36,074 nt of DNA from a virus: IMG/VR virus record IMGVR_UViG_3300045181_000026. One strand, given 5' to 3'. Position numbers and translations under genes: made by a program. The notes beneath the pieces were generated by a model. That model saw nothing but the letters and a program-made list of their open reading frames with translations. It did no database searches and was not told the DNA's origin. Each line of letters begins with the position of its first letter. The first letter of the stretch is position 1. Shown piece after piece: positions 1,211 through 36,074 of the stretch.

Positions 1211-1915
1211 TTGGACCTCAGAGAACGAGCCGCGGCTTTCGCGCAAGAACTCCAAGAGACACTCAGCGGGGTGCTGCCCGGCGACTTCCAACTCATATCG
1301 GTCGCCCACAACGGTAGGTACGTAGTCCGGCCGGCCGGTTCCGAAGCGAAGTCGCAGCGGGTCCCGCTCTATATCGGTGAGGTGCTCGCTGCAAAGCTGA
1401 AGGTTCAGGTGTTTCTAGGGCTCGACCACTCCGGAGAGTTCTTGAAGACGATGGGATCTGCCGTTGCCATCGAGTCGGTACTCGATCGAACGCCGCTCAT
1501 CCGCCAAGAGTTCAGGTCCGACATGGCGAAGGACGCCCCGTTCGCTCATTGGCACATCCATGCTGACCGCGGAGCGCTTTCGCACCTGCTTGGTCAAGCT
1601 CACGCGGTGCGCAGCGACGTGGTCCAGAATCCGCACGACATGTCCTCGCTGCACTTTCCAGTTGGTGGAGAACGCTTCCGGCCGTGCGTCGAGGATGTTC
1701 TGGAGTTCGCGGTCAGGGAGCTCGGCGTGGATTGCAAAACGGGCTGGGAAGGCGCGCTGAAAGCCGGTCGAGAGAAGTGGCGGCGACGGCAGTTTCGTAC
1801 CACCGTGCGCGACTTGCAGGAGGAGGCGGCTGATGTCTTGCGCAAGCAGGGCTGGACGTTGACCCCTCCTGATTCCGTGCGCACGGAGGGCACAAGCGTG
1901 CTTCACCGCTGGTGA
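1211..1915 (+). CDS. Hypothetical protein (about 234 aa), lower-GC accessory gene, no domain recognised
   Basis: Open frame of listed ORF 1046..1915. The part upstream of 1197 is S/R-rich and overlaps the better 1012..1197 frame, so the start is placed at TTG 1211 (CTG 1187 is also possible). Hand counts of four 60-nt blocks between 1201 and 1500 give 57-62% G+C. Confidence 0.55.
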   Translation: MDLRERAAAFAQELQETLSGVLPGDFQLISVAHNGRYVVRPAGSEAKSQRVPLYIGEVLAAKLKVQVFLGLDHSGEFLKTMGSAVAIESVLDRTPLIRQEFRSDMAKDAPFAHWHIHADRGALSHLLGQAHAVRSDVVQNPHDMSSLHFPVGGERFRPCVEDVLEFAVRELGVDCKTGWEGALKAGREKWRRRQFRTTVRDLQEEAADVLRKQGWTLTPPDSVRTEGTSVLHRW

Positions 1916-2196
1916 GCAAGAGACCACCCATGACCGACCCCGGCTCCTGGGACGCCGACGCCGACCTCTGGCAGGCGATCACCAACGAGGTCCCGATCCC
2001 GCCCCGCCACGACCAGGTCGACGCACCCGAACCCATCCCCGTCACCGCGCGCATCCACTGGGAACGCGACGGGGAGGAGCAGCTCGACACTCAGGCCGTC
2101 GCGTGGTCCGGCCGCGCCGTCCTCATCAGCATCCACGACCGCCGGCGGCAGATCCTCGGAGTGTGGCTCGACGCCGCCGACATCACGCGGCGCTAG
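1912..2196 (+). CDS. Hypothetical protein (88-94 aa), third gene of the accessory operon
   Basis: GTG 1912 overlaps the upstream stop (GTGA); ATG 1930 is an alternative start. Stop TAG 2194-2196 is followed at once by a strong hairpin. Confidence 0.55.
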   Translation: MSKRPPMTDPGSWDADADLWQAITNEVPIPPRHDQVDAPEPIPVTARIHWERDGEEQLDTQAVAWSGRAVLISIHDRRRQILGVWLDAADITRR

Positions 2197-2198
2197 AA

Positions 2199-2234
2199 GG
2201 GCCCGTCTCGATCGTCGGTGATCGAGACGGGCCC
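2199..2234. terminator. Bidirectional terminator between the convergent accessory operon and the lipoprotein gene
   Basis: Perfect 15-bp stem GGGCCCGTCTCGATC / GATCGAGACGGGCCC, 6-nt loop, then TTGTGTGT on the + strand. Confidence 0.8.
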
Positions 2235-2254
2235 TTGTGTGTCGGTGGTCGGAG

Positions 2255-2638
2255 TTAGCAGACGTCGTCGTAGAAGTCCTCGAGGATCGAGTCCTCGACC
2301 TCGGGGACCTGCATGTGCCACGAGATCAGTTGGCCCTCACGGTCGCTGCGCCAGGATTCGCAGTCCATCTCGTTCCACTCGTCAGGGCGCCGTTCCCACG
2401 CGGGGTAGAAGTCGCGGTCCTCGAGCTCGGACAGTCCTAGGTGTGGCGAGAGTGGCGTCAGGGGTGCGGCCTCGTCCTCGTCGAGGAAGCCGAACTCTTC
2501 TTCCATCATCTGCTCGTTGATCTCGGCTTGCTCGTTCATCTCGTTGATCGCTTCCTGCTCGGGGGAGGTGCAGCCAGCGAGAGCGAGCAGGGCGACGGGT
2601 ACGGCGAGGGCGATTCGCGTTCGGGGGCGCGTGTGCAT
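2255..2638 (-). CDS. Secreted, highly acidic lipoprotein (127 aa)
   Basis: MHTRPRTRIALAVPVALLALAG|C has a signal peptide plus lipobox (LAGC). GAAAGG lies 8 nt upstream of this ATG. The mature part is rich in E/D. The listed ORF 2255..2695 has a P-rich N-extension. Confidence 0.7.
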   Translation of the reverse strand: MHTRPRTRIALAVPVALLALAGCTSPEQEAINEMNEQAEINEQMMEEEFGFLDEDEAAPLTPLSPHLGLSELEDRDFYPAWERRPDEWNEMDCESWRSDREGQLISWHMQVPEVEDSILEDFYDDVC

Positions 2639-2707
2639 GGTGGGCCTTTCGGGGTGGGGCGGGGGATTGTGTGGAGGGTATGCCAGTTCTGGCACCGGGT
2701 GGTCCGG

Positions 2708-3535
2708 TTAGGCGGCCGTCTGGGCGACGACGCGGAGGCGTGCGCGGTCGACGTCGACGTAGCGCTGCGTGATGGTGGGGGTGGAGTGCCCGAGCAGTTG
2801 TTGCACGGCGAGGAGATCGTTGGTGGCGCGCCAGGTCTTGGTGGCGAATCGGTGACGCAGGCTGTGCATGGTCCACTCGCCCGGGAGGGCCTCCGCGACG
2901 AGCTCGCCCACCCATCTGGGGGAGAGGTGGCCGTCGATCTTACCGGGGAAGGCGTAGCCGGCCCCGTCCTGGCAGGCGGCGCGGATCCGGTCGGCGAGTC
3001 CGTTGTCGAGCGGGATGAACCGGCGCCGGCCGCCCTTGCCGTGGACGAGGAGCGTCCAGCCGTCGAGGTCTTGCACGAGGTCGCTGATGTGGACGCAGGC
3101 GACTTCGGCGCGCCGGAGGCCGCGGTGGGCGCCGAGCTCGATCATGAGCCGGACGCGGTGGTCGGCGCGCATGATCGCCTCGCGGAGTGCGGCATCCGGG
3201 GTGGGTCGCGGCCGGTGGTCGGGTTCGCGGACTTTGGGCAGCACGATGGCGGGCGAGGTGGTGCAGCGTCCGGTGCGGGTGGCCCATTCCCAGAAGCCTC
3301 GGAGCGACGCGCGGACGCTTCGGCGGGTGGCGGCCGACCACGTTTGCGCCGCGGTCCAGGCCACGAGGTCGTCGGGGGTGACGTCCCACGGTCCGACGCC
3401 GAGGGCGCGGGAGCATCGTCGGAGGTGGTCTGTGCGGGTGGTGATTGTGCCGGGGGAGCGGCTGGCAGAGCGCATCTCTGCCGACCAATCGTTGAGGGCC
3501 TTGGACCATTCCGGAGTGATCGGTTTCTCTCTCAT
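2708..3535 (-). CDS. int: Tyrosine integrase (275 aa)
   Basis: Catalytic signature visible: ..HRGLRRAE.., HSLRHRFATK, LLGHSTPTITQRYV (R..HxxR..H..Y). C-terminus is ...RVVAQTAA. Confidence 0.92.
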   Translation of the reverse strand: MREKPITPEWSKALNDWSAEMRSASRSPGTITTRTDHLRRCSRALGVGPWDVTPDDLVAWTAAQTWSAATRRSVRASLRGFWEWATRTGRCTTSPAIVLPKVREPDHRPRPTPDAALREAIMRADHRVRLMIELGAHRGLRRAEVACVHISDLVQDLDGWTLLVHGKGGRRRFIPLDNGLADRIRAACQDGAGYAFPGKIDGHLSPRWVGELVAEALPGEWTMHSLRHRFATKTWRATNDLLAVQQLLGHSTPTITQRYVDVDRARLRVVAQTAA

Positions 3536-3556
3536 GCTCGCGATTTCAACACCGGA

Positions 3557-4060
3557 TCAGCGGGCGTGAGGCAGTTCGAGATCCACGTCTGTGGACAGCG
3601 TGGTCGCAGGTGAGAGGGTGTGGACGGTCGCGAGCTCGTCGCGCTCGATAGCCGGCTCGGAGACCACCGGGAGCGGGACGATCTCGGCGAGGTGCTCGTC
3701 GCGCTGGACTCCAGACCAGAAGGTTGGGGGTTCGAGTCCCTTCGGGCGCGCAGATGCCCCGGTCGCGTATGCGACCGGGGCATTCGCCATTTCTGGGCCG
3801 CGACGGGGCGTCCTGCGCACGAGCAGTTCGGCGGGGTCCAGCCCGAACATGTCGGCAATCGCCTCGATCTCCCCGAGCGTGATCGGTCGAGCTCCGCTCA
3901 GCTTCAGCGAGAAGCCGCCGGATGAGAGACCGAGACGGCGGGCGACCTCAAGCTTCGTCAGGCCGGCTCGGCCAATCTCTGCGCGGATGTTTGCCGCCAC
4001 GACATACGCGAGCGGGGGCTCATCGGGCGATGCCTGCGGATGGATTGGCGTAGCTGTCAT
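3557..4060 (-). CDS. XRE-family HTH immunity repressor, viral form (167 aa); the ORF runs through the attP core
   Basis: ATG 4060. HTH: NIRAEIGRAGLTKLEVARRLGLSSGGFSLKLSGARPITLGEIEAIADMFG. Divergent from the cro-like gene. The listed ORF 3557..4198 has an unlikely N-extension. Confidence 0.75.
   Translation of the reverse strand: MTATPIHPQASPDEPPLAYVVAANIRAEIGRAGLTKLEVARRLGLSSGGFSLKLSGARPITLGEIEAIADMFGLDPAELLVRRTPRRGPEMANAPVAYATGASARPKGLEPPTFWSGVQRDEHLAEIVPLPVVSEPAIERDELATVHTLSPATTLSTDVDLELPHAR
3634..3705 (+). repeat. Two copies of a 12-bp direct repeat, GCTCGTCGCGCT (3634-3645 and 3694-3705), just 5' of the attP core; candidate arm-type Int sites
   Basis: Exact 12/12 match, 60 bp apart, read directly. 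Confidence 0.4.
3709..3750 (+). other. attP common core: mimic of a tRNA 3' half (anticodon loop to 3' acceptor strand)
   Basis: CTCCAGA-CCAGA-AGGTT-GGGGG-TTCGAGT-CCCTT-CGGGCGC-G fits anticodon loop, 3' anticodon stem, variable loop, T-arm and acceptor 3' strand. Upstream sequence cannot pair to form the 5' half, so this is not a gene. It lies next to int. Confidence 0.7.
3754..3783 (+). terminator. Perfect hairpin directly after the tRNA-like segment (likely replacement tRNA terminator after integration)
   Basis: 13-bp stem ATGCCCCGGTCGC / GCGACCGGGGCAT, loop GTAT. Confidence 0.6.
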
Positions 4061-4173
4061 ACGTGAGAGTCTACAACGCACCGTAAGAATGCGGAAGGGT
4101 CTGCAAGTCCAGGTTTCGCAACGCGCTGATCTTGCGGCTTGCAAGACCCTGTGACGTGGTGTAGACATGCCGC
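4061..4173. promoter_or_regulatory. Divergent rep/cro control region with nested inverted repeats and -10-like hexamers
   Basis: Outer inverted repeat GTCTACA (4069-4075) / TGTAGAC (4160-4166). Inner repeat GGGTCTGCAAG (4097-4107) / CTTGCAAGACCC (4138-4149), which includes the palindrome CTTGCAAG. TAGACT lies 7 nt before the rep ATG and TAGACA 6 nt before the cro ATG. Confidence 0.55.
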
Positions 4174-4422
4174 ATGCAGATCTTACGCGGTGCAACACTC
4201 TCTAACATTCGAGCGGAGATGGCTCGACGAGGTCTCCGTCAGGCGGATCTCGCCGAGGTGCTCCACATCAGCAGCGGAGCGATCAGCCAGAAGCTCACCG
4301 GAGCGCGGCCGATCAACCTCGCCGAGCTGGAACTGATCGCGGAACGAATCGGCGTGCCGATGAGCGTGCTGGTCGATGACGACCCGGCGCTCGCCGGCGA
4401 TCACGCGAAGGCGGGTGCGTGA
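4174..4422 (+). CDS. Cro-like XRE-family HTH protein (82 aa)
   Basis: LSNIRAEMARRGLRQADLAEVLHISSGAISQKLTGARPINLAELELIAERIG. Clearly paralogous to the repressor HTH. First gene of the rightward early operon. Confidence 0.8.
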   Translation: MQILRGATLSNIRAEMARRGLRQADLAEVLHISSGAISQKLTGARPINLAELELIAERIGVPMSVLVDDDPALAGDHAKAGA

Positions 4423-8688: not shown

Positions 8689-8864
8689 CCTGCCGGCCGC
8701 GCTGCTTCACCTGCCGGGCCGAGGGGCTCGAGCTCGCGCACATCAATGTCCACGGGTACGAGTGGGCGATCTGCAAGGCGTGTGTCGACCGGTACGAGTT
8801 CTTCCCGCCCGCCGTCCACCGCCGCCTGCAGGGGGCCTTCGCCAGGCGGGCGGTCGCGGCGTGA
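8685..8864 (+). CDS. Small zinc-ribbon protein (59 aa)
   Basis: My own translation: MTCRPRCFTCRAEG...WAICKACVDRYEFF.., with CxxC pairs. ATGA and GTGA overlaps on both sides. Confidence 0.55.
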   Translation: MTCRPRCFTCRAEGLELAHINVHGYEWAICKACVDRYEFFPPAVHRRLQGAFARRAVAA

Positions 8865-9127
8865 CTCTCGCCAACCTGTCCCCGCAGCCCTGGATGGACG
8901 AAGCGCTCTGCGCGCAGTCCTGGCCGGACGCGTGGTTCCCCGGCAAGGGTGAGACCGCCGGCCGCGCCAGGGCCATCTGTGACACCTGCCCCGTCAAGGC
9001 CGCCTGCCGCGACTACGCCGACAGCTTCGAGCCGAACAGACCCGACGACATGTTCGGCATGTACGGCGGAGAGTCCCCCGCCGAGCGGTACGCCCGACGC
9101 CGAGCAGCACGGGAGGCCGCAGCATGA
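8861..9127 (+). CDS. whiB: WhiB-family transcription factor (88 aa)
   Basis: C-x22-CxxC-x5-C pattern with context ALCAQ..PDAWFP..GRARAICDTCPVKAACRDYA. Confidence 0.85.
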   Translation: MTLANLSPQPWMDEALCAQSWPDAWFPGKGETAGRARAICDTCPVKAACRDYADSFEPNRPDDMFGMYGGESPAERYARRRAAREAAA

Positions 9128-9630
9128 GCGACCTCGACGTCTGGGACGTCATCCAGTTGACGGTGCGCAACCTGTACCGGGAGTACGCCGACCTGCTCTT
9201 CGACGGCGACTGCCACAAGCCCGAGAATCACGGCTGGCACGGCGCCGACGCGCAGGGCTGCGCGACCCCGAAGGGCGTCTGGGCGACGACGAGTAACCCC
9301 CACGCCAGCAGCCCCGACGCGACGTGGGCGCAGATCCGCAAGGAACTGGTCGCCCGCCTCGACTTCAAACCGATGCTGGCCCTGCGCGCTCAGGAGCGGA
9401 CCGCATATGCGGAGTACTGCGCCGCCGCGCACGAGTACTCCCTCGGGTACATCGACGGCACCGTGACCGACGAGCAGCGCGAGCGGGATCGTCGCGCGGT
9501 CGCCGAGCACATCCGATTGGACCGTGCGCTGGCGGCGGCCCTGGTCGCTGCCGTCGCCGCCGCTCCCTCTGGTGTCCCGGACGACCTCGGTACGCCGAGC
9601 ATGCTCGACCTCCTCGAGGTGACGGCATGA
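9124..9630 (+). CDS. Hypothetical early protein (168 aa) ending in DDLGTPSMLDLLEVTA
   Basis: Listed ORF with ATGA overlaps at both ends. Confidence 0.6.
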   Translation: MSDLDVWDVIQLTVRNLYREYADLLFDGDCHKPENHGWHGADAQGCATPKGVWATTSNPHASSPDATWAQIRKELVARLDFKPMLALRAQERTAYAEYCAAAHEYSLGYIDGTVTDEQRERDRRAVAEHIRLDRALAAALVAAVAAAPSGVPDDLGTPSMLDLLEVTA

Positions 9631-9869
9631 CCGACCTCCTCGACCTCCTCGCCGCGGAGATCGCCCCGTCCAGGACGCACATGGTGCTGCCCGACATGGG
9701 CACCGCCTGCGGCCGCACCGTCCTCGACGTCACCGACGCCGACAGTGCCGGCGCGCGGCTCACGTTCACGGTCGGCCGGGCCACGTGCCCCGAGTGTGCG
9801 GCCGCCGACCCCAACGAGCTGCGGGCCGAGATGCAGGCCATGCAGTACCGGCAGGCGAAAGCCGCATGA
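9627..9869 (+). CDS. Small Cys-containing protein (80 aa)
   Basis: ATG 9627 in an ATGA overlap. MTDLLDLLAAE... with ...CG... and CPEC. Confidence 0.55.
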   Translation: MTDLLDLLAAEIAPSRTHMVLPDMGTACGRTVLDVTDADSAGARLTFTVGRATCPECAAADPNELRAEMQAMQYRQAKAA

Positions 9870-10596: not shown

Positions 10597-10773
10597 ATGC
10601 TGAACGAATCCCCCCGCCGCCCAGGCCGCCGCCCCGGCCACCGACCCGGTGTCGTTGGCCGCGTCATCGGCGCAACGATCTTGTGCCTGATCGGCGTCGC
10701 CATCATGATCGGCCTACTCACCCTCGTCGGCTACGCCGTGAAGGCGCTCGCCACCGCGTGGGGGTGGATGTGA
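10597..10773 (+). CDS. Small membrane protein (58 aa)
   Basis: My own translation: MLNESPRRPGRRPGHRPGVVGRVIGATILCLIGVAIMIGLLTLVGYAVKALATAWGWM. Confidence 0.5.
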   Translation: MLNESPRRPGRRPGHRPGVVGRVIGATILCLIGVAIMIGLLTLVGYAVKALATAWGWM

Positions 10774-11345
10774 TGGCCTCCTGGCCGACGGCGTACCTGA
10801 TCGAGGCCACCCCGTCCGGTGGCCGGCCGGACTACTTCGTGCGTGACCTGGCAGGGCACTACCAGGCGATCGGTGGGGGGCAGCGGCTCTACCGGGACGG
10901 CACCGACCGCCTCGACAACGTGGTGCCGGTGACGATCGTCCGGTCCGGCGAGCTGCGGCACCTGCGGGACATCGTCCTGACGGGGTCGGATCGTGAGGTC
11001 GCGGACGCATGCCGCGCACTGTGTGCCGGCGCGATGGATGAGACGGCAGCGGCACGACCGCGCAGTCAGGAACGTCGGCACGCAGAAACGGCCGCCGTCT
11101 CGCGCTCAGGGAGCGGGAGGCGAGTCCCGACGGTGAGCCTTGCGGCGAATCACGGCGATCACGGCGGTGCCGACGAACAGCACAACACCGATAAGACCCA
11201 GCCAGAGCAGTCCCTTAAGCATGAATCCGACGATCGACAGGATCAACCAGGCGACGAGCAGCACCACTATCAGAGTTCCCATGTCGCGACGGTACGCCCT
11301 AACCGCTGTGTCCACACTCCGCAGGAAGTCGCGGGCGAGCGATGA
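10773..11345 (+). CDS. Hypothetical early protein; the 3' third runs antisense to 11106..11282
   Basis: ATG overlaps the upstream TGA. The first ~100 codons look coding. There is no in-frame stop until 11345. Confidence 0.45.
   Translation: MASWPTAYLIEATPSGGRPDYFVRDLAGHYQAIGGGQRLYRDGTDRLDNVVPVTIVRSGELRHLRDIVLTGSDREVADACRALCAGAMDETAAARPRSQERRHAETAAVSRSGSGRRVPTVSLAANHGDHGGADEQHNTDKTQPEQSLKHESDDRQDQPGDEQHHYQSSHVATVRPNRCVHTPQEVAGER
11106..11282 (-). CDS. Small 2-TM membrane protein (58 aa), reverse-oriented and lower in GC
   Basis: MGTLIVVLLVAWLILSIVGFMLKGLLWLGLIGVVLFVGTAVIAVIRRKAHRRDSPPAP. Hand-counted blocks give 55-60% G+C. GC3 is about 74%, against about 67% for the overlapping + frame. Confidence 0.6.
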   Translation of the reverse strand: MGTLIVVLLVAWLILSIVGFMLKGLLWLGLIGVVLFVGTAVIAVIRRKAHRRDSPPAP

Positions 11346-25258: not shown

Positions 25259-28200
25259 ATGTCCCAGGACTCCGCCGTCTGGCTCCCGGTACTTCCCGAC
25301 ATGTCCGGCTTCGGGCCGGGAATGCTCCGCGGCGCCGAGCAGGCCGCCGAACGAACGGGGCGCTCGACGGGCCGCAAGTTCGGACTCGCGGCGCTCGCGG
25401 GCGTGGCGGCGATCGGCGCCGGCGCGGCGGCCGCGACGCGTGCCCTGTACTCGATCGGTGAGACCTTCGACGAGGTCGAGGACACGATCCGGGTCGGAAC
25501 GGGTGCCACGGGCGACGACCTCGAGGCTCTGGTGGAGTCCGCGCGGCAGGTCGGCACCCAGGTGCCAGCCCAGTTCGAGGACATCGGCACCGCGGTCGCA
25601 GACCTGAACACCCGGCTCGGGCTCACCGGCGACGATCTCGAGACCGTGGCGAGCCAGGTCCTCGAGGCGGGCCGCATCCTTGGCGAGGACGTCGACATCC
25701 ACGGCGTGAGCTCCGCGTTCAACGCCTTCGGTCTCGAGTCGGACCAGGTCTCCGGGGCCATGGACCACCTCTTCCGGGTCTCCCAGGCCACGGGCATCGG
25801 AATGAACGACCTCGCGGCCCAGGTGTCGTCGAACGCGCCCGCGGTGCAGCAGCTCGGCTTCTCCTTCGAGGAGACGGCCGCCCTGGTCGGAAACCTCGAC
25901 CGGGCGGGCCTGAACTCCTCCCGGATGATGATGGGCATGTCGCAGTCGCTCGTGCGACTGGCCCGCGACGGGGAGGAGCCCGCGGAGGCCTTCCGGCGGA
26001 CCGTGGACGAGATCGACGCCTTCCTCGCTGCCGGGGATCAGGCGGCCGCGATCGATCTCGCGGGCGAGGTGTTCGGCACCCGCAACGCGACCCAGTTCAT
26101 TGGCGCGATCCAGGACGGCACTCTCGCCATGGACGATCTGGCGTCCGTCGCGGGCATGACCGAGGACACGATCCTCGGCGCCGGCGAGGAGACGATGGAC
26201 TTCGCCGAGCAGTGGCAGCTGTTCAAGAACAACGTGCTCGTCGTGCTCGAGCCGATCGCGAGCCGAGTCTTCAGCGCCTTCGGCGACGGCATGGCCTGGC
26301 TGACCGAGTCCGCGTTCCCGGCACTGTCCTCGGCGTGGGACTCCTACGTCTCTCCCGTGCTCTCCTGGATCGGGGACATGTGGGACGAGTACATCGGCCC
26401 TGCCCTGACCTCCCTCGGTGACACCCTCACCAACGTCATCGTGCCGGCACTGGTCGAGTTCGGGGACCGCGCGCAGACGATGTGGACCGAGTACGTCGAG
26501 CCCACCTTCATGGGCATCTGGGGCGTCATCCAGGACTACGTGATCCCCACGATCCGCGAGCTCTGGCAGGACGTCATCAAGCCAGCGTTCACCGAGATCG
26601 GCGAGACGATCCAGGCCTGGTGGGACAACGTCGGCCGACCGATCTTCAACAAGGTCGAGGACATCATCATCAACAAGGTCGGCCCGGCGATCACCGGGCT
26701 GTGGCAGAACGTCGTCGGCCCCGCCTTCGCGGGAATCGGCGACTTCATCTCCAGCGCCTGGAACAACGTCATCAAGCCGATCTTCGACACGATCCAGTCC
26801 ATCCTCAACGGCGACCTCACCGGAGCCTTCAACTCCTTCAAGGACGCCGTCACGGGCGTGTTCGAGACCGTCGGCGGCGTCATCTCCGACATCTGGAACG
26901 CGACCATCAAGCCCGTCTGGCAGGCGATGAGCTCCTTCATCTCCGACACCGTTGTCCCCGGCGTGGAGACCGGAGTCGACTTCCTGCGCCGAGCCTTCGA
27001 CCGGGTCGCCAACTTCTTCCGCACCCCGATCAACTGGGTGATTCGCTACGTGTGGAACGCGGGCCTCCGCAAGGCCTACAACGCAGTCGCCGGCGTCATC
27101 GGCGCCAGCCAGCTCGAGCGCGCAGACGAGATCGGCGAGTTCGGCGGCACACCCGCCTCCGCGCCAGTCCAGCGCGGCTCCACGACCAGGGGCCTCGCAC
27201 CCCGGGCGTTCGCCCGAGGAGGCTACGCCTCCCCAGGGTGGGCGCTCGTCGGCGAAGAGGGCCCCGAGCTCATCGACCTGACCACCCCCGGACGCGTCTA
27301 CACCGCCGGCCAGACCGCCGAGGCGCTCGCCGCGCTCGACGCCGGCCGCGACCTTACCGACCAGCAGTCCCAGATCCTCGCCGGACCTTCCCCGGCGCGG
27401 GCGCTCGCCCCGATGGGCGGCCCCGGGGACTGGGTGTCGGACGCGTGGGGCGCCGTCACCGACGCCGCCGGCGCGGCACTGAGGTGGACTCGCGGGGCGC
27501 TCGCTTCGGCGGCGGACGCTCTGCTCGGCCCGATCTTCGAGGGCATCGCCGGGCGGATGGCTGAGCATGGCCGGTTCGGTGAGCTCGCGGGCAGTGCGAT
27601 GGTCAACGTCAAGGACCGGCTCATGGACTGGATCCGTGGCCAGGACGAGGAGTACCTCGCCCGGACCATGTCCGGCGTCGACAAGTTCGACCCGGCCATG
27701 CTCGGTGCCGGCGTTGCGGGCGCTGGTGCGGGCGGCGGATGGCTCAGGCCCGGCCCCGGCCCCGTGACGAGCCGCTTCGGTCCACGGTGGGGTGGCATGC
27801 ACGCCGGCATCGACCTTGCCATGCCGGTCGGCACCCAGCTGCGGGCCCCGTTCGATGGGCAGGTCATCCGGTCCGGTTTCGGCACTCTCGCCGGCCGCAC
27901 GGGCCTGGGCCTGATGATGATGCTCGCCAACGGCTTCGGCGCCTACTTCGGGCACCTCAGCCGCGTGTTCGCGGCCGATGGCCAGGCCTTCAACCGGGGC
28001 GACATCCTCGCCCTGTCCGGCAACACCGGGAACAGCACCGGCCCGCACCTCCACTTCGAGGTCAACCGCGGGAACTTTCAGGCACCGATCAACCCGACGA
28101 TGACCGGGCTGTTCGACCAGGGCGGCATCCTCGAGCACGGCCACGCCGCGCTGAACCTCTCTGGCGAGCCGGAGGCGATCCTCACCGGCGACCAGTGGCG

Positions 28201-28366
28201 CCAGCTCGAGGCGATCGCCAACGGCGAGGCTCAGTGGCCGGCCTACGCGACCGGCCCCGCCGCGGTCGTGACCGTGGAGAACGGGGACGCCGGCCGGGTG
28301 GTCGGTGCTATCGACTTCGCGATGAAGGCCCGGGAGCGCGGCGTCCGGGCCAGGAGCAGGGGGTAG
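25259..28366 (+). CDS. Tape measure protein with a C-terminal M23 (LytM) peptidase domain (1035 aa)
   Basis: Repeated W-x3-(I/V)-x-P units. HAGIDLA...GNTGNSTGPHLHFEV. Confidence 0.9.
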   Translation: MSQDSAVWLPVLPDMSGFGPGMLRGAEQAAERTGRSTGRKFGLAALAGVAAIGAGAAAATRALYSIGETFDEVEDTIRVGTGATGDDLEALVESARQVGTQVPAQFEDIGTAVADLNTRLGLTGDDLETVASQVLEAGRILGEDVDIHGVSSAFNAFGLESDQVSGAMDHLFRVSQATGIGMNDLAAQVSSNAPAVQQLGFSFEETAALVGNLDRAGLNSSRMMMGMSQSLVRLARDGEEPAEAFRRTVDEIDAFLAAGDQAAAIDLAGEVFGTRNATQFIGAIQDGTLAMDDLASVAGMTEDTILGAGEETMDFAEQWQLFKNNVLVVLEPIASRVFSAFGDGMAWLTESAFPALSSAWDSYVSPVLSWIGDMWDEYIGPALTSLGDTLTNVIVPALVEFGDRAQTMWTEYVEPTFMGIWGVIQDYVIPTIRELWQDVIKPAFTEIGETIQAWWDNVGRPIFNKVEDIIINKVGPAITGLWQNVVGPAFAGIGDFISSAWNNVIKPIFDTIQSILNGDLTGAFNSFKDAVTGVFETVGGVISDIWNATIKPVWQAMSSFISDTVVPGVETGVDFLRRAFDRVANFFRTPINWVIRYVWNAGLRKAYNAVAGVIGASQLERADEIGEFGGTPASAPVQRGSTTRGLAPRAFARGGYASPGWALVGEEGPELIDLTTPGRVYTAGQTAEALAALDAGRDLTDQQSQILAGPSPARALAPMGGPGDWVSDAWGAVTDAAGAALRWTRGALASAADALLGPIFEGIAGRMAEHGRFGELAGSAMVNVKDRLMDWIRGQDEEYLARTMSGVDKFDPAMLGAGVAGAGAGGGWLRPGPGPVTSRFGPRWGGMHAGIDLAMPVGTQLRAPFDGQVIRSGFGTLAGRTGLGLMMMLANGFGAYFGHLSRVFAADGQAFNRGDILALSGNTGNSTGPHLHFEVNRGNFQAPINPTMTGLFDQGGILEHGHAALNLSGEPEAILTGDQWRQLEAIANGEAQWPAYATGPAAVVTVENGDAGRVVGAIDFAMKARERGVRARSRG

Positions 28367-35460: not shown

Positions 35461-36074
35461 ATGGCCCAATTCCCCGGCGCCATCCAGAAGCCCATCAGCA
35501 CGAACTTCGGCCTCGTCCGCAGCGGCGGCAAGATCGACCGGACCGCGGCCCGCCCTGGCGGAACGACGGCCGTGATCTATCACGTCGCAGCATCCAAGGC
35601 CGCGAGCCTGCGCGACTACTTCAACCTGCCCGCCGTCCGCGCGTCCTCTCACCTGTTCGTCCTCTACAGCGGGTTGGTCGAGCAGTACGTCGACACCGAC
35701 CACGTCTCCTGGGCGTGCGGGGACGGCGACCTGCGCGCCATCACCGTCGAGACCCAGGGCGTGGACGGCGAGCCGTGGACGGACGCCCAGGTCGAGACCC
35801 TCGCCCAGATCGCCGCGTGGGCGCACCGCACCTACGACGTCCCCCTCCGCCTCATGACCTCCTCCGCGACGAGTCAGCACGGGCTGGGCTGGCACCGCCT
35901 CGGCGTGCAGGGCAACTTCTCCGGCCGGCCCGGCCTCCTTGGCCTGCACCGCTCCAACCTCAAGACCGAGCGGTGGTCATCGGCCTTCGGCAAGACCTGC
36001 CCGGGTGACGACCGGATCTTGCAGATGCCGACCATCCTCGCCCGCGCCAAGCAGATCACCGGCAGCTCGGATCC
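35461..36074 (+). CDS. Endolysin, 5' part: N-acetylmuramoyl-L-alanine amidase (Amidase_2/PGRP-like); the ORF runs off the window end and continues at 1..578
   Basis: GGAGG RBS. My own translation: MAQFPGAIQKPISTNFG...AVIYHVAAS...SSHLFV...VDTDHVSWACGDG...ITVETQG...HGLGWHRLG...FGKTCPGDDRI. No stop before the window end. Confidence 0.85.
   Translation, partial: MAQFPGAIQKPISTNFGLVRSGGKIDRTAARPGGTTAVIYHVAASKAASLRDYFNLPAVRASSHLFVLYSGLVEQYVDTDHVSWACGDGDLRAITVETQGVDGEPWTDAQVETLAQIAAWAHRTYDVPLRLMTSSATSQHGLGWHRLGVQGNFSGRPGLLGLHRSNLKTERWSSAFGKTCPGDDRILQMPTILARAKQITGSSD
35948..36074. repeat. Terminal overlap copy 2 (identical to 1..127)
   Basis: See feature 1..127. Confidence 0.95.

Follow-up and report, generated by a model that had tools for sequence, protein, structure and literature searches.

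We focus here on a cassette of three genes near the left end of IMG/VR virus record IMGVR_UViG_3300045181_000026, a stretch of 36,074 nucleotides which was analysed as a whole and is referred to below as the window. Two of the genes lie side by side on the minus strand. The first, int (2708..3535), encodes a tyrosine integrase (Int) of 275 aa, and the second, rep (3557..4060), encodes a repressor (Rep) with an XRE-type helix-turn-helix (HTH) that is 167 aa long in its viral form; the rep stop and the int ATG lie exactly 21 nt apart. A Cro-like HTH gene (4174..4422, 82 aa) points away from them on the plus strand, so that the order is int(-)/rep(-)/cro(+), with int and rep adjacent and co-oriented and cro divergent, as is expected of integration-dependent immunity. 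The phage attachment site, attP, lies inside the repressor gene. We consider it very likely that this region of a temperate actinobacteriophage is its lysogeny switch and works by integration-dependent immunity, as in phages BPs, Brujita and Charlie. A layout of this kind, modelled on BPs, had been proposed in an earlier sequence-only reading of the window. Its description of a minus-strand XRE-HTH ORF (open reading frame) with an N-terminal HTH, and of an integrase that begins 21 nt beyond the repressor stop and ends in ...VVAQTAA, proved accurate, and the cassette turned out to be homologous to that of BPs, with an integrase 45% identical to gp32, an attP of the same origin and a prophage repressor ending in the same PPTF.

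The common core of the attachment site, CAGAAGGTTGGGGGTTCGAGTCCCTTCGGGCGCGCAG, occupies positions 3717..3753 and with them rep codons 103-115. Its 37 bp are identical in attP and in the two prophage junctions, attL (on contig L015) and attR (on contig L010), and strand exchange must therefore fall inside 3717-3753, within the repressor gene where the sequence-only reading had placed it. The core belongs to a slightly longer copy of tRNA-Arg(ACG) on the plus strand (3707..3750), which runs from the anticodon loop to the discriminator base. Compared to the host gene, this copy has three mismatches left of 3717 and perfect identity from 3717 on, with phage C against host T directly left of the core. 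The window holds no second copy of the tRNA-like piece, which, with no match in 100 shuffles, cannot be put down to chance. ARAGORN found no complete tRNA in the window, and the Rfam tRNA model matched the piece below threshold (19.4 bits as opposed to a gathering score of 29) with the D-arm missing; it is therefore a 3' fragment rather than a functional tRNA gene, in agreement with the earlier description of a tRNA 3' mimic without a 5' half. The CCA anticodon tentatively read in that description sits in the diverged phage stretch outside the crossover, the anticodon at attL is ACG, and tRNA-Trp (CCA) is rejected as the target. The anticodon loop differs between attP and the host site (attB), whereas the identical core includes the symmetric T-stem, so that strand exchange probably takes place in the T-arm, with the T-loop as the presumed site.

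Integrated copies of the phage, with arms 99.6-100% identical to the window overall, were found on metagenome contigs, which supplied both kinds of junction. The attL junction is intact on the 79.6-kb contig L015 (Ga0485859_00395), where rep starts with an ATG at 10686 and stops at a TGA at 11028-11030, giving a product of 114 aa. Here ARAGORN reports a complete tRNA-Arg(acg) at 10995..11068, on the strand opposite to rep and overlapping it. The phage early genes, cro and rep of this contig are 99.97% identical to the window, and beyond attL it runs on for 9 kb through bacterial genes. The attR junction is found on the 218-kb contig L010 (JGI 3300045521 Ga0485882_00108) as well as on L011 and L012. 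In all three, the core connects int and the final 53 rep codons to non-phage DNA, which spans 9.7 kb on L010. An empty attB was located in the genome of Actinomycetales bacterium JB111, in which both bacterial flanks (approximately 90-92% identical) lie on either side of a single tRNA-Arg gene. The attL-side flank abuts this gene directly, and the attR-side flank is about 1.2 kb off. The attB is situated at the 3' end of the tRNA gene, and at attL the phage copy restores the tRNA; the host tRNA that the sequence-only reading had presupposed is this tRNA-Arg(ACG). Identical tRNAs are present in Cellulomonas, Georgenia and Actinomyces. In none of the 39 isolate genomes that carry the identical tRNA does an HTH gene extend into it, and homology at the level of the hairpin described below was the only kind seen there, in JB111 and two Georgenia genomes. 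The host is related to JB111 and Georgenia and belongs to a different actinobacterial lineage from the host of BPs.

What integration does to the repressor is decided by a single base. Codon 115 of rep (3716..3718, minus strand) is TGG (Trp) in the phage, and at attL the host T that stands for phage C3716 turns it into TGA. Since this first host-specific base converts W115 into a stop, the prophage repressor is 114 aa long. The part of the gene retained in the prophage (codons 1-114; 3719..4060, minus strand) keeps its promoter and yields a product ending in ...ARPKGLEPPTF, while the viral-only extension (codons 115-167 plus stop; 3557..3718, minus strand) goes to the int side at attR. Rep is thereby reduced from 167 to 114 aa, with 53 residues lost and not one host codon added. 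The sequence-only reading had anticipated that some 50-65 of the last codons would be exchanged for host sequence and that a new repressor stop would be seen at attL; the loss and the stop are as anticipated, but no host-encoded residues take the place of what is lost. A database record of a 114-aa protein (P0002) is 100% identical to Rep 1-114 and has the same C-terminal end, and a search for Rep homologues returned two proteins only, both of them forms encoded by this phage. Of eight listed contigs that encode the 114-aa protein, five short ones from other samples (L004, L006-L009) read through the TGA as ...TTCTGATCCG(TAGTC), i.e., TTC TGA TCC G(TA GTC), which is the antisense of the tRNA-Arg(ACG) anticodon arm. 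The other three stop at the contig end with ...TTCTG, the exact point at which attP and attL diverge, and are therefore uninformative. The site, the identity of the tRNA, the two forms of Rep and the restoration of the tRNA are all observed directly in these sequences.

The HTH of Rep is found at residues 31-79, within the segment covered by Pfam HTH_31 and HTH_26 matches (residues 25-82), and the protein also matches PHROG transcriptional repressor families. An AlphaFold2 single-sequence model shows a confident five-helix domain at residues 17-81 (pLDDT ~90) with residues 82-167 unstructured, which is weak evidence; the C-terminal extension is probably disordered on this model and would be compatible with a flexible tail. 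Codon-position GC in the extension (0.80, 0.42 and 0.86 for positions 1, 2 and 3) is coding-like in the rep frame. As had been noticed from the sequence, the viral form ends in ...LELPHAR and carries no ssrA-like -AA tag.

Int matches Pfam Phage_integrase (E 1.3e-17) and PHROG integrase families and has a weak SAM-like N-terminal domain. It comprises a core-binding and a catalytic domain, its length (275 aa) and domain content fit an integrase without an arm-binding domain, and its candidate catalytic residues are R141, K167, H224, R227, H250 and Y259. The protein is 45% identical to BPs gp32 over the whole length of Int (E 3e-72) and 47% identical to the integrase of Curtobacterium phage Barebow. 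Of the solved structures, 5vfz_A 'Gp33', which we take to be the Brujita integrase, matches it best (E 1.8e-20), ahead of XerC- and XerD-type recombinases. Judged by its domains, Int fits the arm-less 'IntBrujita' kind (PMC8138268). The C-terminus reads ...RLRVVAQTAA, and the tails of related integrases are likewise short and Ala-rich (-AAV, -AAI, -IAS and -IVS, next to -TAA in the window). By analogy, the -QTAA end is consistent with a C-terminal degradation signal and may make Int a protease substrate. No excisionase match was seen among the ten ORFs around the cassette or the Pfam marks of the early region, in which most small ORFs have no known family.

The same site recurs well beyond this phage. 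A scan of IMG/VR for the core gave 33 stretches (L017-L049), which were read in the antisense frame. In the 13 attL-type copies, HTH ORFs end in ...[RS]KGLEPPTF followed by a stop, and that stop is TGA in every case. In the 14 attP- or attR-type copies, as in the window and Barebow, TGG or TGT stands in place of the stop, and these 14 copies extend for a further 11-42 aa, mostly to ends such as -SAA, -HAA, -QAA, -EAA, -RAS, -RVA and -RAI; the 53-aa extension of the window is the longest among the copies examined. All ten proteins that were checked gave HTH-family matches. Many of the core-bearing elements are about 15-19 kb long and bounded by two copies of the core, e.g., IMGVR_UViG_2788499871_000001 (18,499 nt). 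They resemble Barebow with its small genome and appear to form a widespread group with the same site and the same truncation rule. Read from the sequences of BPs, Barebow and about 30 viral contigs, this rule states that the repressor form predicted to be active ends in residues that the tRNA-Arg T-arm encodes in antisense, that its stop is a TGA taken from the host anticodon stem, and that this base is mutated in all phage copies, which would let translation read through. That unrelated repressors consistently have a sense codon where the tRNA has a stop is the best argument offered by the sequences for an extension that is selected and not accidental. Microbacterium phage PensacolaC28 (L051, PP978844) was not counted. 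In its region 1282-3001, an HTH gene contains a tRNA-Arg-like piece that reads in the sense direction, and the gene for the tyrosine integrase is split, being annotated as two coding sequences; the layout is different and possibly decayed.

Directly 3' of the tRNA copy, still inside the rep coding sequence, is a perfect 13-bp hairpin (3754-3766/3771-3783, plus strand) that the sequence-only reading had already picked out. Its free energy is -37.9 kcal/mol (z = -5.1), and on the rep strand it encodes ...ANAPVAYATGA.... In a lysogen it would come to lie behind the rebuilt tRNA-Arg, where it is probably a terminator that shields rep from antisense read-through. A consensus terminator scan did not flag it because its T-run is weak. 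A homologous hairpin follows tRNA-Arg in JB111 and the two Georgenia genomes, and related phages from Actinomyces/Schaalia-type contexts carry the different hairpin of those hosts at the same place. The homology between attP and attB is longer than the core: by blastn it covers up to about 104 bp (from 3707 to about 3800-3810) at 90-96% identity to L065 (4553-4655), L067 (5240-5332) and L088 (2498-2588), the tRNA-Arg(ACG) 3' flanks of JB111 and the two Georgenia, and so extends some 50-60 nt past the tRNA. On the bacterial side of attR, L010 has a hairpin whose stem is preserved by paired changes relative to that of the phage. The same side (8689-9827) holds what is left of another Rep-like gene, with 40% identity to Rep residues 51-102 and a hairpin version of its own; upstream, an rve-family transposase ORF interrupts it. 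The relic suggests that a related prophage once occupied this tRNA-Arg. The hairpins may be host terminators captured by phages or phage sequence left in hosts. A match of the Rfam 'P15' Pseudomonas small RNA model to 3756-3856 (minus strand) is driven by the hairpin and was dismissed as spurious (22 bits compared to a gathering score of 70). In the left arm, the two exact repeats noted earlier are indeed present as the 12-mer GCTCGTCGCGCT at 3634-3645 and 3694-3705, both copies encoding R-D-E on the rep strand. They are one of about seven comparable local 12-mer repeats in the genome, where about one is expected, and are not evidently special; with nothing to tie the pair to recombination, a role as an integrase arm site is unsupported.

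The Cro-like protein has a Pfam HTH_3 match, and public gene calls place its start at 4219, which would shorten it to 67 aa. Its residues 10-71 are 49% identical to Rep residues 23-85, so that the two are paralogs, and the Cro-like protein and the Rep DNA-binding domain may recognise the same operators. The region between rep and cro (4061..4173) is the presumed site of divergent promoters and operators.

As to the genome at large, the window (69.9% G+C) has a terminal direct overlap of 127 bp (1-127 = 35948-36074), the signature of a circular assembly, which leaves 35,947 unique bases. It encodes the large terminase, portal, major capsid and tape-measure proteins, and with this structural gene set present it is a complete tailed-phage genome, specifically that of a temperate siphovirus-type phage. 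The tape-measure gene (25259-28366, plus strand) includes a peptidase/endolysin-like segment at residues ~814-984, according to PHROG matches. The gene for the amidase (lysin) spans the circular junction of the window, as mapped by coordinates from L010. Between int and the lysis-side genes, a minus-strand ORF at 2255-2695 has a lipoprotein-type signal (...LLALAGC...) and no match to a known family; its position is typical of an accessory gene expressed from a prophage. An uninterrupted, attP-form rep is also present on L013 (83,357 nt) and L016 (74,416 nt), both more than twice the length of the 35,947-bp genome, and the first base of L013 is window position 1. Candidate causes are tandem prophages, concatemers formed in replication, or the assembly path.

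In the mechanism we propose, Int would recombine the 37-bp core in rep with the 3' part of the host tRNA-Arg(ACG) gene. The phage copy rebuilds the tRNA and puts the hairpin behind it, and rep, which keeps its promoter, now runs antisense into the host tRNA, with the change from TGG to TGA giving the 114-aa repressor. If the phage behaves as BPs does, the 167-aa form produced from unintegrated DNA would be inactive or short-lived through its 53-residue extension, and the truncated form alone would serve as the stable repressor of the divergent cro/early promoter. If only the truncated form stably represses, lysogeny would depend on integration and hence on the level of the apparently arm-less Int. 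To go by the experimentally studied homologues (PMC3694055, PMC4557955, PMC8092301), the frequency of lysogeny would then be set by whether Int accumulates enough to integrate, and Int alone would also carry out excision. Both the instability of the long form and control through Int stability are plausible by analogy with these close homologues.

Several observations weigh against this account. The viral Rep tail, -PHAR, has neither -AA nor -AS, unlike that of most relatives, and at 53 aa the extension is longer than is common in known systems, with 20-35 aa reported for Mycobacterium abscessus prophages (PMC8092301). An -AA end such as that of Int could be due to chance in an Ala-rich proteome, and annotated BPs gp32 has no such end. 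In 4061..4173, the only candidates for operators are three 7-bp inverted repeats with differing centres, no sigma-70 consensus match was found for promoters, and no motif of this region recurs elsewhere in the genome. The unusual tail in particular leaves room for a variant in which the truncation is the same and the 53-aa extension is something other than a C-terminal ssrA-like ClpXP tag. It could contain an internal degron, be recognised by another protease, block oligomerisation or DNA binding, or have a separate role such as stimulating the rep promoter. We regard this as possible, but on the whole less likely than not. Where the window has -PHAR, relatives end in -AA, -AS, -VA or -AI, and no other copy examined reaches its length (53 as opposed to 11-42 aa). 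It was also stated that members of the type without ssrA-like tags 'presumably use other signals' (PMC8092301), and a stabilised BPs gp33-136 had a modest promoter-activating effect (PMC4557955). However, positive evidence was found for none of these options, and the predicted disorder suits a degron equally well. There are described members without an -AA end, BPs with its -DKAS among them (PMC8092301), so an -AA tag on Rep is typical and not strictly required.

It could also be argued that the overlap of attP and rep is functionally neutral, integration clipping a dispensable tail and leaving two equally active forms of Rep, since the extensions are poorly conserved between relatives and the truncation leaves the DNA-binding domain (residues 17-81) intact. 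This we hold to be very improbable. Every phage-side copy examined has TGG or TGT for the tRNA-derived TGA, across very different repressors and hosts including those of BPs, the extension has the coding-like composition given above, and in BPs experiments the two repressor forms differ in activity (PMC4557955, PMC3694055). Still harder to credit, to the point of being negligible, is an origin of the 114-aa form and of the junctions in assembly artefacts at a tRNA-like repeat. While three of the eight contigs do end at ...TTCTG, with the product cut by the contig end and not by a stop codon, the other five pass the TGA into tRNA-specific sequence, L015 and L010 continue for 9 and 9.7 kb on the bacterial side, and both bacterial flanks map around one tRNA-Arg in an isolate genome. 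Two bolder readings strike us as rather unlikely. In one, the long extension without a terminal Ala inactivates Rep by something other than an ssrA-like tag; in the other, the family repeatedly overwrites the 3' flank of tRNA-Arg. The attP/attB homology of about 100 bp, with a terminator hairpin that matches that of the host clade, and the Rep relic beside attR may point to such repeated overwriting. If overwriting did occur, the 'host' tRNA-Arg terminators of several actinomycete lineages would be phage-derived.

Integration-dependent immunity, in our judgement the best description of the cassette, was reportedly first described by Broussard et al. in 2013, in mycobacteriophages BPs, Brujita and Charlie. 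Beyond the Mycobacterium phages in which it was worked out, the system is known from Gordonia, Streptomyces, Bifidobacterium and M. abscessus prophages. Knowledge of the mechanism goes back to 2013, annotations of it are common among actinobacteriophages, and this case leaves the current understanding unchanged. The present work extends integration-dependent immunity to an uncultured 36-kb phage and a new host lineage, with attP, attL, attR and the empty attB all recovered from public data. Two details are unusual: the Rep tail is long and has no Ala at its end, and Cro and Rep are paralogs with 49% identity. The truncation rule allows such switches to be recognised cheaply and the active repressor allele to be predicted, which is of help in the construction of immunity markers or integration vectors for poorly tractable actinomycetes.

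Close relatives of the phage are scarce. A megablast of the cassette against 50,697 phage records yielded just 44 nt of the core, in Barebow. A sensitive blastn with the core alone led to immunity repressor genes of several groups of phages: BPs, in which attP is annotated in gene 33, with Halo, Angel and other cluster G phages; Gordonia phages UmaThurman, Rahul, EricDab, Emperor and SallySpecial; an M. abscessus prophage; and Barebow. Among these, BPs provides the closest comparison. Its genes 32-33-34 have the same order and orientation as the cassette in the window, and its attP, likewise within rep, goes back to the corresponding portion of a tRNA-Arg gene, being 87.8% identical to that of the window over 41 nt. 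BPs gp33 reads ...RPEGFEPPTF|CLGAT...DKAS, with TGT as the phage codon after PPTF. The prophage repressor of BPs is 103 aa long (PMC4557955), and this gp33-103 ends at the same PPTF as that of the window, a TGA in the tRNA antisense replacing the phage sense codon. The tRNA-encoded peptide is the sole part that the two repressors share, their DNA-binding parts not being homologous. They also differ in the extension (53 aa ending in -PHAR in the window, 33 aa ending in -DKAS in BPs). Int lacks the N-terminal (~57 aa) and C-terminal (64 aa) additions of annotated BPs gp32, and Cro is a paralog of Rep in the window, unlike in BPs. Nonetheless, as layout, origin of the attachment site, truncation point and recombinase are shared, the cassettes are homologous and not merely analogous.

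Other systems resemble that of the window in part. Barebow (PQ868957, genes 18-20) and the IMG/VR elements of about 17 kb carry a near-identical core in an HTH gene beside a 47%-identical integrase, with a hairpin after the core and an extension that starts at the same codon. However, these are small genomes (~17-18 kb) whose repressor N-termini are unrelated to that of the window; the Barebow core differs in the acceptor stem (CGAGCGC A), and its gene is annotated publicly as just a 'helix-turn-helix DNA binding protein.' The 'simple, arm-less' integrases of the Brujita type consist of the same two domains as Int (PMC8138268; Lunt and Hatfull, 2016, cited there), whereas the attB of Brujita differs from that of the window. 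In the Gordonia and M. abscessus systems (PMC5559632, PMC8092301), attP likewise lies in rep and the stop arises at attL, and some members have -AA tags on Rep and Int where others do not. Truncation there removes 20-35 aa and in some cases adds a few host-encoded residues, whereas the repressor of the window loses 53 and gains none.

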